Below, piece by piece: positions 31,183-32,977 of a DNA stretch of 32,977 nt. The notes below the pieces were generated by a model. That model was not told the origin of the DNA. It ran no database searches and saw nothing but the letters and a program-made list of their open reading frames with translations. The position numbers were made by a program, and so were the translations under genes. Position 1 is the stretch's first letter. Each line of letters starts with the position of its first letter. Source of the stretch: a virus (lineage: Duplodnaviria > Heunggongvirae > Uroviricota > Caudoviricetes); IMG/VR virus record IMGVR_UViG_3300028549_001428, one strand, 5' to 3'.

Positions 31183-32977
31183 ATGGCAGATATTGCAGTA
31201 GCACCAGTCACGGAAAAAAAGAAACGAATTCCAATGACGAAGGCAATTAAGTCATTTGATTGTCGAGAGATTCCCATCACCGCTGAATTGCGAAATGATA
31301 TAGAGTTGATTGAGCATGATAGAGCAACAATGCGTAGTTTGTATTGTAATTTCTTAGCGTCAGTTCCTATTCAGTCAACTGATATTGATAATTTGGTTAT
31401 CATGAGTATTTGGTTCAGCCAAGAACGATATGATGATAAAATTCACTTACATAACATGATGGTGTTCAAGCATAGCGATCATTTAAAGGATGATGTACGT
31501 GAATATTTAATGAGTGAGTATTCAATGATGTTCTCGAATGATTTAATCAATGAATTTGTCGATGAATATGTTAATATTGAAAAGGAAGATTATTGTTTAG
31601 TGGATAGACGCAAGGCTGTAATTGACAGTGGAGTTCCGTTAGAATCTTACCATGATGTTCTTCGATTAGCATGGGGTAATACATATGATATGTATCATAA
31701 GCAGAAGTCTTTGTATGAATTTGGAAATGTAAACGCCACCTCTCTGAATGTTAATGCTGCTGGTAATGGTAGTAAGGTAATTAACGCATCCATTGAAACT
31801 ATTAAGTTGATTAACTCATTGAAGGATGTAATCAGTAAGAATTATGTCATATTCAATCCGAGTGGGATTTTCAAATCCATATTCGTTGATGTGTTTTCTG
31901 ATAATCGTATTGCTCATAACAAAAATAATGTCAAGGATCGTCATGAGTTACTAGCAGAGTTGGTTGTTCCTGTTTCTGCTGAGTTTGATATTGTGAAAGG
32001 AATACCAGAGTATACCTTTTCGAGTATGAATGGAATCAATTTAGTTAATGCCAAAAAGCCAGAAGTTGATGCGTTCAGGAAATTGTACAACGATTGTGCG
32101 AAGAACAAAGATGCTACTGAGTTCATTGAAGCATACAAATATTCAGAAAATGTATACATGGCATTCATGGTGAAGTGCATTGAACTTGGGATTGATTACA
32201 AGCCATTGAGGGAATGCGTCAAATACAATGATATTTTGACCCAACTTGCTGACCGTAAGATGACTTCGGTTTCTTGGTATCCACGCAAGATTATTACTGT
32301 GAATTCTACGTTTTTTGGTACAATGAAAGTATCAAATGTAAGTAGCAGTAGACGAAATCCACTATTCACCATTAAAATTGGTAATAGTACATTTAATCTT
32401 TCGATTAGAGCAATTGCTAATCATGATTATTTTGTTAGGAACAATAATCTGTACATTAAATCAAATGGGAATGAGTTTGAATTTGGTAGTATGACTTTGA
32501 AGCATTCCGATGAAGATGGGAAGTTGAAAATAAGTATTACCTTTAGTGATAGTTATGTCACTAGATTTGTGAAATTCGCTGATGGCATTGAAATTAATAA
32601 AGATGATAAAGTTCTTGGTGTTGATTGGTCAACAGCAGATTTTGTAGCGACTGCTATTGCTGGGGTTAGTTTACCAAAATCATCATACAAAGTTAATGAT
32701 CGAGCATCTATTGGGCAGATTCAACTGCGAGAAACTGGATATATCAAACTGGGTAAGGATTGTCTACCATCTGCTATGGACAAGACATTTTTGGATGACT
32801 ATTGTAAAAAGTATGGTATCAAGCATGAAGCCAAATACAAGGATGACAATGTTAAAGGATATTATGCTCAGTTAAGGGATATTGCTTGGTCTGTTCGTAG
32901 TAAGATCAGAAATGATCTATTCACAGAATCAATGGCTAAACAAGCGTATAGTGATTTAAAGAGTGCTTTATTCACAG
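31183..32977 (+). CDS. Large RuvC-containing candidate type V (Cas12-like) effector, 3'-truncated by the window end (>598 aa; not in ORF track)
   Basis: GGAGA SD plus ATG at 31183. Manual translation shows no stop through 32977. RuvC-I-like KVLGVDW (D481, nt 32623) follows a beta-rich segment. Adjacent to array 2 and the tracrRNA. Confidence 0.75.
   Translation, partial: MADIAVAPVTEKKKRIPMTKAIKSFDCREIPITAELRNDIELIEHDRATMRSLYCNFLASVPIQSTDIDNLVIMSIWFSQERYDDKIHLHNMMVFKHSDHLKDDVREYLMSEYSMMFSNDLINEFVDEYVNIEKEDYCLVDRRKAVIDSGVPLESYHDVLRLAWGNTYDMYHKQKSLYEFGNVNATSLNVNAAGNGSKVINASIETIKLINSLKDVISKNYVIFNPSGIFKSIFVDVFSDNRIAHNKNNVKDRHELLAELVVPVSAEFDIVKGIPEYTFSSMNGINLVNAKKPEVDAFRKLYNDCAKNKDATEFIEAYKYSENVYMAFMVKCIELGIDYKPLRECVKYNDILTQLADRKMTSVSWYPRKIITVNSTFFGTMKVSNVSSSRRNPLFTIKIGNSTFNLSIRAIANHDYFVRNNNLYIKSNGNEFEFGSMTLKHSDEDGKLKISITFSDSYVTRFVKFADGIEINKDDKVLGVDWSTADFVATAIAGVSLPKSSYKVNDRASIGQIQLRETGYIKLGKDCLPSAMDKTFLDDYCKKYGIKHEAKYKDDNVKGYYAQLRDIAWSVRSKIRNDLFTESMAKQAYSDLKSALFT

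Follow-up and report, generated by a model that had tools for sequence, protein, structure and literature searches.

The stretch of DNA under study, referred to as the window, is 32,977 nucleotides long and comes from a virus of the Caudoviricetes (IMG/VR record IMGVR_UViG_3300028549_001428). At its 3′ end lies the beginning of a gene for a Cas12-like protein, preceded by a small RNA and by a CRISPR array, termed array 2. The RNA resembles a trans-activating CRISPR RNA (tracrRNA), and the protein is a candidate effector of a type V system. Two other contigs are needed to describe the locus: L001, a second contig from the same sample, and L002, which carries the corresponding locus of a related phage. 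The features of the locus, in the coordinates of the window, are:

30233 to 30859, minus strand: CRISPR array 2, ten repeats of 32 nt with a modal spacer of 32 nt, ending 324 nt upstream of the gene
30860 to 30932, minus strand: array 2 leader, most of it conserved in L002
30933 to 30961, minus strand: promoter TTGACT-17-TATATT, directed into array 2 and also kept in L002
31008 to 31036, plus strand: sigma-70-type promoter TTGACA-17-TATATT, both hexamers conserved in L002, the spacer between them diverged
31043 to 31168, plus strand: tracr-like RNA of ~125 nt, delimited by promoter and terminator motifs
31173 to 31176, plus strand: ribosome-binding site GGAG for ATG 31183 (the in-frame ATG 31171 is not kept in frame in the ortholog)
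31183 to 32977, plus strand: 5′ part (598 codons) of the gene encoding a 778-amino acid Cas12-like protein, the part that overlaps L001

The reading frame called in the window extends from 31171 to 32976 on the plus strand (602 amino acids) and meets no stop codon before the 3′ end. Random stop codons are expected at a frequency of ~7% at a GC content of ~35%, and the chance of 598 open codons calculated from this composition is ~1e-19; the frame is therefore not a product of chance. ATG 31183 is preferred to ATG 31171 as the start, since the upstream ATG is out of frame at the ortholog locus and GGAG stands at Shine-Dalgarno distance from 31183. This leaves 598 codons inside the window, and both the reading frame call and the comparison with the start of the ortholog bear out the frame and residue numbering that the original prediction, made from the window alone, had proposed. 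The missing 3′ part is supplied by L001, which is identical to the window across an overlap of 1795 nt. The full gene is L001:354-2690, of which ~542 nt extend beyond the end of the window, and its product, P0001, has 778 amino acids, the frame in the window representing the first 77%. A terminator hairpin directly follows the stop codon at L001:2690.

The C-terminal third of P0001 is a RuvC domain of the TnpB/Cas12 type, with homology that spans residues ~410-775. The NCBIfam model guided_TnpB matches residues 650-737 (E 1e-6, with 28 bits against a curated cut-off of 100) and phrog_506 'transposase' (TnpB) matches residues 411-731 (E 7e-7). These matches to TnpB family models are sub-threshold but mutually consistent. 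No Pfam family is found for P0001, no PADLOC Cas12 model at E<=1, and no PDB chain at E<=10, either with P0001 alone or with a profile that includes its ortholog. Thus the comparison with Cas12 subtypes, which had been set beforehand as a test, places P0001 in none of those described in PDB, PADLOC and Pfam. The N-terminal ~475 amino acids, which the original prediction could not assign to a known subtype, have no match in Pfam, NCBIfam, PADLOC or PDB.

A link to Cas12 proteins is provided by a remote relative, P0003, of 863 amino acids. It is the sole non-self match (E 1.2e-4) in an exhaustive HMMER search of 1.84 billion representatives. In pairwise comparison the two proteins are 29% identical over residues 613-775 of P0001 (E 4e-13), with an hhalign probability of 94.6%. 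P0003 matches the Pfam family C2c1_RuvC-like and the PADLOC models of Cas12f, Cas12u3, Cas12h and Cas12b; among PDB chains it matches Cas12j19/'Cas12-2' and 'Cas12X' (E 7e-15) and Cas12h1 (6e-5). Judged by these similarities P0003 is clearly a Cas12. A profile of P0001, its ortholog P0002 and P0003 finds the Cas12j19/Cas12X chains at E 5e-15 and Cas12h1 at 1.2e-5, as well as chains of Cas12m, Cas12f-type and Cas12b proteins.

At the structural level, the ESM Atlas neighbours of P0001 are viral hypothetical proteins and members of the TnpB/Cas12f families (0.96 for the language-model features). The Atlas model, with a predicted template modelling score of 0.42, superposes over residues ~18-777 on TnpB/Cas12f-type models with template modelling scores of 0.65-0.74 when normalised by the hit, which is weak structural support. 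The predicted order of secondary structures begins with an N-terminal strand and continues with a helical region to ~360, a beta-rich region at 380-455, RuvC-I (481) and a helical insert (534-662), which is followed by RuvC-II and RuvC-III. At the low confidence of these predictions, this order would fit the usual Cas12 plan. By guided_TnpB, phrog_506, the hhalign alignment with P0003 and the Atlas superposition, P0001 thus has a C-terminal RuvC-like domain (RNase H fold) that appears homologous to TnpB, with weak support from structure.

The tracr-like RNA lies between array 2 and the gene. Its predicted fold has a 5′ stem with a nested hairpin, followed by a second stem in which the sequence CUCUCA (31095-31100) is found in an internal loop around a GACA/UGUC hairpin. 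The sequence AUUUCACACAC (31125-31135) is single-stranded in this fold and is followed by an intrinsic terminator at 31136-31168 with a GC-rich stem of 10 bp. The end of the terminator is 15 nt from the start codon, too close to leave room for another promoter, and therefore the gene is probably expressed by terminator read-through. The RNA folds better than shuffled sequences (z-score -4.5). It is 91% identical to its counterpart in L002, and 96% identical over the anti-repeat part at 31086-31135. Of 34 predicted base pairs, 31 are unchanged in L002, one has a one-sided change (G-U to G-C) and none is broken; in the other two, changes on both sides compensate each other, G-C having become A-U in one and U-A having become G-C in the other. 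The RNA has no family in Rfam.

CUCUCA and AUUUCACACAC, with the small hairpin between them, are complementary in colinear order to the final 16 nt of the array 2 repeat as read on the minus strand. The duplex of the RNA with the minus-strand repeat has a predicted energy of -25.1 kcal/mol, compared with -14.5+-2.9 for shuffled repeats, a value reached by 2/500 of them. The duplex with the plus-strand repeat is no better than those of shuffles. The original prediction had placed a tracrRNA beside the gene, and the candidate described here, with a conserved anti-repeat, bears this out. On the strength of its complementarity and conservation, we infer that the RNA acts as a tracrRNA and would be bound by the protein together with the CRISPR RNA (crRNA).

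The array of 32-nt repeats that had likewise been predicted beside the gene is present. Read on the minus strand, the repeat of array 2 starts with GTTACATC (GTTAC) and ends with GAAATGAGAG, an end also written as GAAAUGAGAG. Three repeats identical to the consensus and other near-consensus ones are at the right, leader-proximal end. Array 2 is most likely transcribed from the minus strand, because the clean repeats and the conserved minus-strand promoter are at its right end and the decayed repeats at its left. The order of repeat, leader, RNA and gene is also found at the ortholog locus in L002. The Cas12-like gene is the one large effector gene associated with this array, and no further cas gene is found in the window or within 5 kb downstream. 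That contig begins with a repeat identical to the leader-proximal one, and the genes of its phage are ~25% diverged. The repeat forms no significant hairpin in either orientation (z -0.9 and +0.35 against shuffles). As a 25-nt probe it finds nothing in IMG/VR, JGI metagenomes or GTDB genomes. In GenBank phages the spacers give no more than chance-level matches (E 0.02-0.7), and no protospacers are found for three spacers in IMG/VR or for one spacer in GTDB genomes. The irregular stretches of the array are at 30392-30511 and 30669-30693, where spacers measure 22, 66 and 25 nt and repeats have deletions of 1-2 nt. The 66-nt 'spacer' contains ATATGTAAC, which resembles the remnant of a lost repeat.

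P0002, the sole ortholog, is encoded on L002 and L003, contigs from two runs of another study. It has 786 amino acids and is 76% identical to P0001. The annotated length of 860 amino acids is an over-extension upstream through the RNA region, the true start being MEDIVV at L002:356. By the Nei-Gojobori method, the ratio of nonsynonymous to synonymous substitution (dN/dS) between P0001 and P0002 is 0.09, with a proportion of synonymous differences (pS) of 0.67, so that synonymous sites are near saturation. The last 87 amino acids of P0001, which include RuvC-III, are the most constrained part (dN/dS 0.05). The Cas12-like gene is under strong purifying selection. Both phages encode, a few kb further downstream, a radical-SAM enzyme with 72% identity, and hence the Cas12-like gene has been kept as well as a core enzyme. 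The same enzyme shows that synteny is conserved downstream of the Cas12-like gene in the related phage. Among the convergent genes of this downstream region are one with an HAD_SAK_2 (RNA-repair 'Swiss army knife') domain at L001:2967-3407 and that of the radical-SAM enzyme (L001:5474-6304 and L002:3590-4423).

No further relatives of P0001 are found in IMG/VR, searched with protein patterns, or in JGI metagenomes. GenBank phages have none by tblastn with P0001 or P0003 and none by DNA search, and word searches with the C-terminal region of P0001 and with P0003 yield nothing beyond the proteins already known. As far as these similarity searches reach, the family is nearly an orphan, with one ortholog and one remote relative detected among billions of proteins. 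The gene for the remote relative is on a 7.7-kb contig, L004, where no CRISPR array is seen. At L004:2659-7480, P0003, which has an intact Asp-Ala-Asp (DAD) at RuvC-III, is followed by a Cas3-like helicase of 745 amino acids (ResIII, DEAD, Cas3-like_C_2) whose start overlaps the P0003 stop. Such coupling of a Cas12-like gene to a Cas3-type helicase is unusual.

The catalytic site of P0001 can be read from alignment with P0003. Residues 476-492 of P0001 are KVLGVDWSTADFVATAI, in which the D481 codon is at 32623-32625 of the window, and VLGVD481 aligns with VMGVD at the RuvC-I aspartate of P0003, in accord with the original assignment of D481. RuvC-II is represented by VVCE671D, which aligns with IVLEK. 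At RuvC-III the xAAxNI helix is present, and in three independent alignments the preceding residues N751-A-N753 are positioned under the D-A-D of P0003 and Cas12j19. A complete Asp-Glu-Asp (DED) triad is not found in P0001; the site reads D481-E671-N753. Of the two residues that were to be looked for beyond the end of the window, the RuvC-II glutamate is therefore present, and the RuvC-III aspartate is replaced by asparagine in both orthologs. P0002 has the same Asn-Ala-Asn (NAN) with identical codons, and the neighbouring codons carry synonymous differences. The segment from RuvC-II to RuvC-III, YTSRYDFITGKEF, is devoid of cysteine pairs, a trait shared with P0003 and Cas12j19. Residues 717-757 contain no CxxC pairs that would form the zinc finger of a TNB domain, and PF07282 and PF01385 do not match.

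The remainder of the window includes a second CRISPR system and genes of more general phage function:

128 to 1525: protein with an Eco57I-type methylase domain
13902 to 14750: DNA methyltransferase
14818 to 15546: phage sigma factor
17146 to 17217, plus strand: tRNA-Pro (UGG), in keeping with a large phage that has tRNA genes of its own
18429 to 19361: HNH homing endonuclease
27230 to 27807, minus strand: array 1, ten repeats of 29 nt and nine spacers, each exactly 32 nt long, part of the neighbouring Cas12f-like system
27992 to 29482, minus strand: Cas12f/V-U4-like protein of 496 amino acids, with matches to Cas12f1-like_TNB, OrfB_IS605 and the PADLOC models Cas12u4/Cas12f

The second, TnpB-grade system that the original prediction saw alongside thus consists of a 496-amino acid Cas12f-like protein with a regular array of its own. 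P0001 was considered as a possible duplicate of this protein, and this was rejected, there being no BLASTP similarity between the two. Array 2, two small open reading frames, the Cas12f-like gene and array 1 all have the same orientation. A near-consensus promoter, TTGACA-17-TACAAT, at 30257-30285 on the minus strand is within the oldest spacer and a degenerate repeat of array 2, and is directed towards the two small frames, which are on the minus strand at 29860-30120 and 29560-29799 and belong to no Pfam family, and towards the Cas12f-like gene.

A group I intron (RF00028, 52.8 bits against a gathering score of 50) is at 10174-10446 on the plus strand, in a stretch poor in open reading frames (8413-10995), and probably interrupts a phage gene. 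No structural genes are found in the window. The genes that are present (helicase, methyltransferases, homing endonuclease, sigma factor and tRNA) agree with a large phage. In a protein collection the Cas12-like gene is recorded on a contig of 365,647 bp, and the best DNA match is a microbial-mat metagenome. The locus is probably carried by a jumbo phage of microbial-mat origin.

The best explanation of the locus as a whole, to which a probability of about 60% is given, is that it represents an undescribed tracrRNA-guided type V lineage in a probable jumbo phage, with an effector that is likely a binder more than a cutter. The parts of this reading are not equally firm. That P0001 is an undescribed Cas12-like effector associated with an array and a tracrRNA is very probable, and the original description of a mid-sized phage Cas12 unlike CasPhi or Cas-lambda is upheld as far as sequence methods reach.

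The locus would form a minimal divergent unit, in which a minus-strand promoter drives array 2 and a back-to-back plus-strand promoter drives the tracr-like RNA. The precursor crRNA would be made from the minus strand. The CUCUC loop and the AUUUCACACAC linker may then jointly base-pair with the final 16 nt of the repeat in the crRNA, adjoining the spacer, and this pairing would yield a split repeat:anti-repeat, or pseudoknot-type, guide scaffold that is bound by the protein. The complex of protein and hybrid RNA would search for complementary targets. With an Asp-Glu-Asn (D-E-N) site, binding and silencing or weak nicking is favoured over efficient double-strand cleavage. Binding rather than cutting is inferred from the asparagine at the position of the third carboxylate in both orthologs, in the most constrained part of the protein. 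On balance, and with limited confidence, the complex would be expected to bind and silence or block its targets, or at most to nick them weakly, instead of cutting both strands efficiently. Perhaps, in a more tentative extension, jumbo phages have long kept a natural dead or crippled D-E-N Cas12, loaded with a split-anti-repeat tracrRNA, as a programmable DNA binder that silences rivals or host genes and leaves them uncut.

Several observations weigh against this reading. The family has two members, and the conservation statistics come from one pair. The N-terminal ~600 amino acids of P0001 have no detectable homolog besides the ortholog. AlphaFold2 models have a predicted local distance difference test (pLDDT) score of 34 for the full protein with a two-sequence alignment and of 42 for residues 365-778 with three sequences, both too low to give a confident fold. 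The anti-repeat is 11 nt of continuous pairing plus 5-6 nt, a short continuous stretch. Array 2 is partially decayed, its left part having substitutions, indels and spacers of 22, 25, 38 and 66 nt, and its spacers have no protospacers in the 33-kb window or related loci at up to seven mismatches. D481, E671 and N753 are brought together in one putative active site by alignment only. D481 and E671 are conserved in the ortholog, which is also consistent with a working active site. Conserved acids near the NAN motif (D672, D723, E729, E738 and E743) are potential substitutes for the lost aspartate. In addition, catalytic residues may sit at alternate positions in TnpB and Fanzor, and this makes single-residue 'dead' calls risky (PMC10705468).

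The last of these points lead to the rival that survives best, a doubtful but serious one. It takes the same locus to encode a conventional, active type V nuclease that cuts rival phages, plasmids or host DNA, with Asn753 helping to hold the metal or another carboxylate completing the site. Besides the nearby acids and the precedents in TnpB and Fanzor, the strict conservation of D481 and E671 speaks for it, as does the RuvC-II/III block, the most constrained part of the protein. Yet in three independent alignments the asparagine is exactly under the catalytic aspartate of P0003 and Cas12j19. Moreover, the known alternate-position cases involve the glutamate rather than the RuvC-III aspartate. 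Most described phage Cas12 proteins (Cas-phi and Cas-lambda) are nucleases (PMC12141684); against this, mutation of any DED residue abolishes cleavage by TnpB and Cas12 (PMC10705468).

Improbable is a second rival, in which array 2 is a decaying relic and the phage has co-opted the protein for a fixed, non-immune task, for example gene regulation with one or a few hard-wired guides. The decayed repeats and irregular spacers agree with it, as does the RuvC-III asparagine, but three repeats remain identical to the consensus, the repeat next to the leader is unchanged in a phage with genes ~25% diverged, and the leader and array promoter are conserved. The lack of a spacer match in the window or related loci also tells against this rival. 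No cas1, cas2 or cas4 gene is detected over 31 kb upstream and 5 kb downstream of the gene, which could also point to a relic, but adaptation genes are commonly missing beside phage arrays. Precedents for such exaptation are TldR and dCas12f (PMC10705468, PMC13472631).

That P0001 is a transposon-type TnpB-like nuclease with an omega-like RNA unrelated to the array, the likeness of RNA and repeat being left over from a degenerate repeat, is scarcely credible: its strongest direct family matches are indeed TnpB models, but the RNA precedes the gene and has a promoter and terminator to itself whereas omega RNAs overlap the 3′ end, no transposon ends or tnpA are seen, the synteny of array, leader, RNA and gene is retained in a diverged relative, 778 amino acids is about twice the size of TnpB, and the anti-repeat segment is 96% conserved.

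An undescribed tracrRNA-guided lineage in a phage would be of interest in several respects. Genome engineering has a demand for new compact type V effectors as tools, and such effectors are also wanted as markers of the evolution from TnpB to Cas12. P0001 would be a phage Cas12 with a well-supported tracrRNA candidate, in contrast to Cas-phi and Cas-lambda, which function with crRNA only. If the asparagine disables cutting, the locus would be a natural module in a virus similar to CRISPR interference (CRISPRi), and would extend the findings on TldR and dCas12f to CRISPR loci of phages. Should the protein still cut, the third carboxylate would be dispensable in the P0001 lineage. Both outcomes are within reach using the 778-amino acid protein, the ~125-nt RNA and the 32-nt repeat. 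New Cas12 lineages are, however, reported regularly.

Among proteins of solved structure, Cas12j19/'Cas12-2' (PDB 8wru, 8xca) and 'Cas12X' (8zqb, 9ix6) are the best relatives of P0003 and of the three-sequence profile. They share with P0001 the RuvC-II block, a K-x-N segment of the 'KSKKSN' kind, the xAAxNI helix and a short, cysteine-free insert between 'YTS' and RuvC-III. They differ in having DAD in place of NAN and a length of ~910 amino acids compared with 778, and the likeness covers only ~160-185 C-terminal residues. They are reached from P0001 only via P0003, and only in the RuvC C terminus. Cas12h1 (type V-H, PDB 8y9l, 870 amino acids) is a compact Cas12 that P0003 and the three-sequence profile match over RuvC-II/III. 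Between Cas12h1 and P0001 there is no direct similarity, P0001 is not matched by the PADLOC Cas12h model, and the Cas12h triad is intact. Cas12h is not known to need a tracrRNA. The reported preference of Cas12h1 for nicking the non-target strand (PMC11830025) is a precedent for reduced cutting.

The phage proteins Cas-phi (Cas12j) and Cas-lambda work with crRNA as the sole guide and carry out its processing themselves. P0001 has no detectable sequence similarity to their solved chains. The crRNA-only mode of Cas-phi goes with a stable repeat hairpin; the array 2 repeat, by comparison, has no significant hairpin, and a conserved anti-repeat RNA is present. They are like P0001 in being phage-encoded, single-effector type V proteins of 700-800 amino acids without adaptation genes (PMC12141684). 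A parallel for the RNA is Cas-pi (Cas12l), a protein of ~860 amino acids that depends on a tracrRNA of >100 nt encoded beside the cas gene (bioRxiv 10.1101/2022.12.16.519550). The last 6 nt of the Cas-pi repeat pair with a tracrRNA loop, creating a pseudoknot immediately ahead of the spacer (bioRxiv 10.1101/2022.12.16.519550), and the potential GAGAG:CUCUC pairing at the P0001 locus may be analogous. Cas-pi differs in that it is an active nuclease, has loci with adaptation genes and is not known from phages (bioRxiv 10.1101/2022.12.16.519550); no similarity between it and P0001 is detected.

Cas12k, Cas12m/Cas12c, TldR and dCas12f-sigmaE are proteins of the TnpB/Cas12 fold that bind DNA under RNA guidance after losing cleavage or without using it. 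The UnCas12m chain is a weak match to the three-sequence profile (3e-5). Some TldRs are encoded by prophages (PMC10705468, PMC13472631). The screen that yielded TldRs required at least two changed residues (PMC10705468); P0001 has one changed residue of three, and its C terminus is complete. The P0001 locus has no linked fliC or oppF-type gene, no Tn7-like genes and no adjacent sigma factor, the nearest sigma-factor gene being 15 kb away. Cas12f, V-U and TnpB proteins provide the strongest direct family-model matches to P0001 and are its structural neighbours in the Atlas. They have 400-700 amino acids and a TNB zinc finger, whereas P0001, with 778 amino acids, is about twice as long and has no TNB domain. 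The models of Cas-phi, Cas-lambda, Cas12f/V-U, Cas12h and Cas12b-type proteins do not directly match P0001, which would work like a tracrRNA-dependent type V effector. P0001 is put forward as a candidate new type V lineage, unusual in combining phage origin with a putative tracrRNA and in its conserved RuvC-III asparagine.

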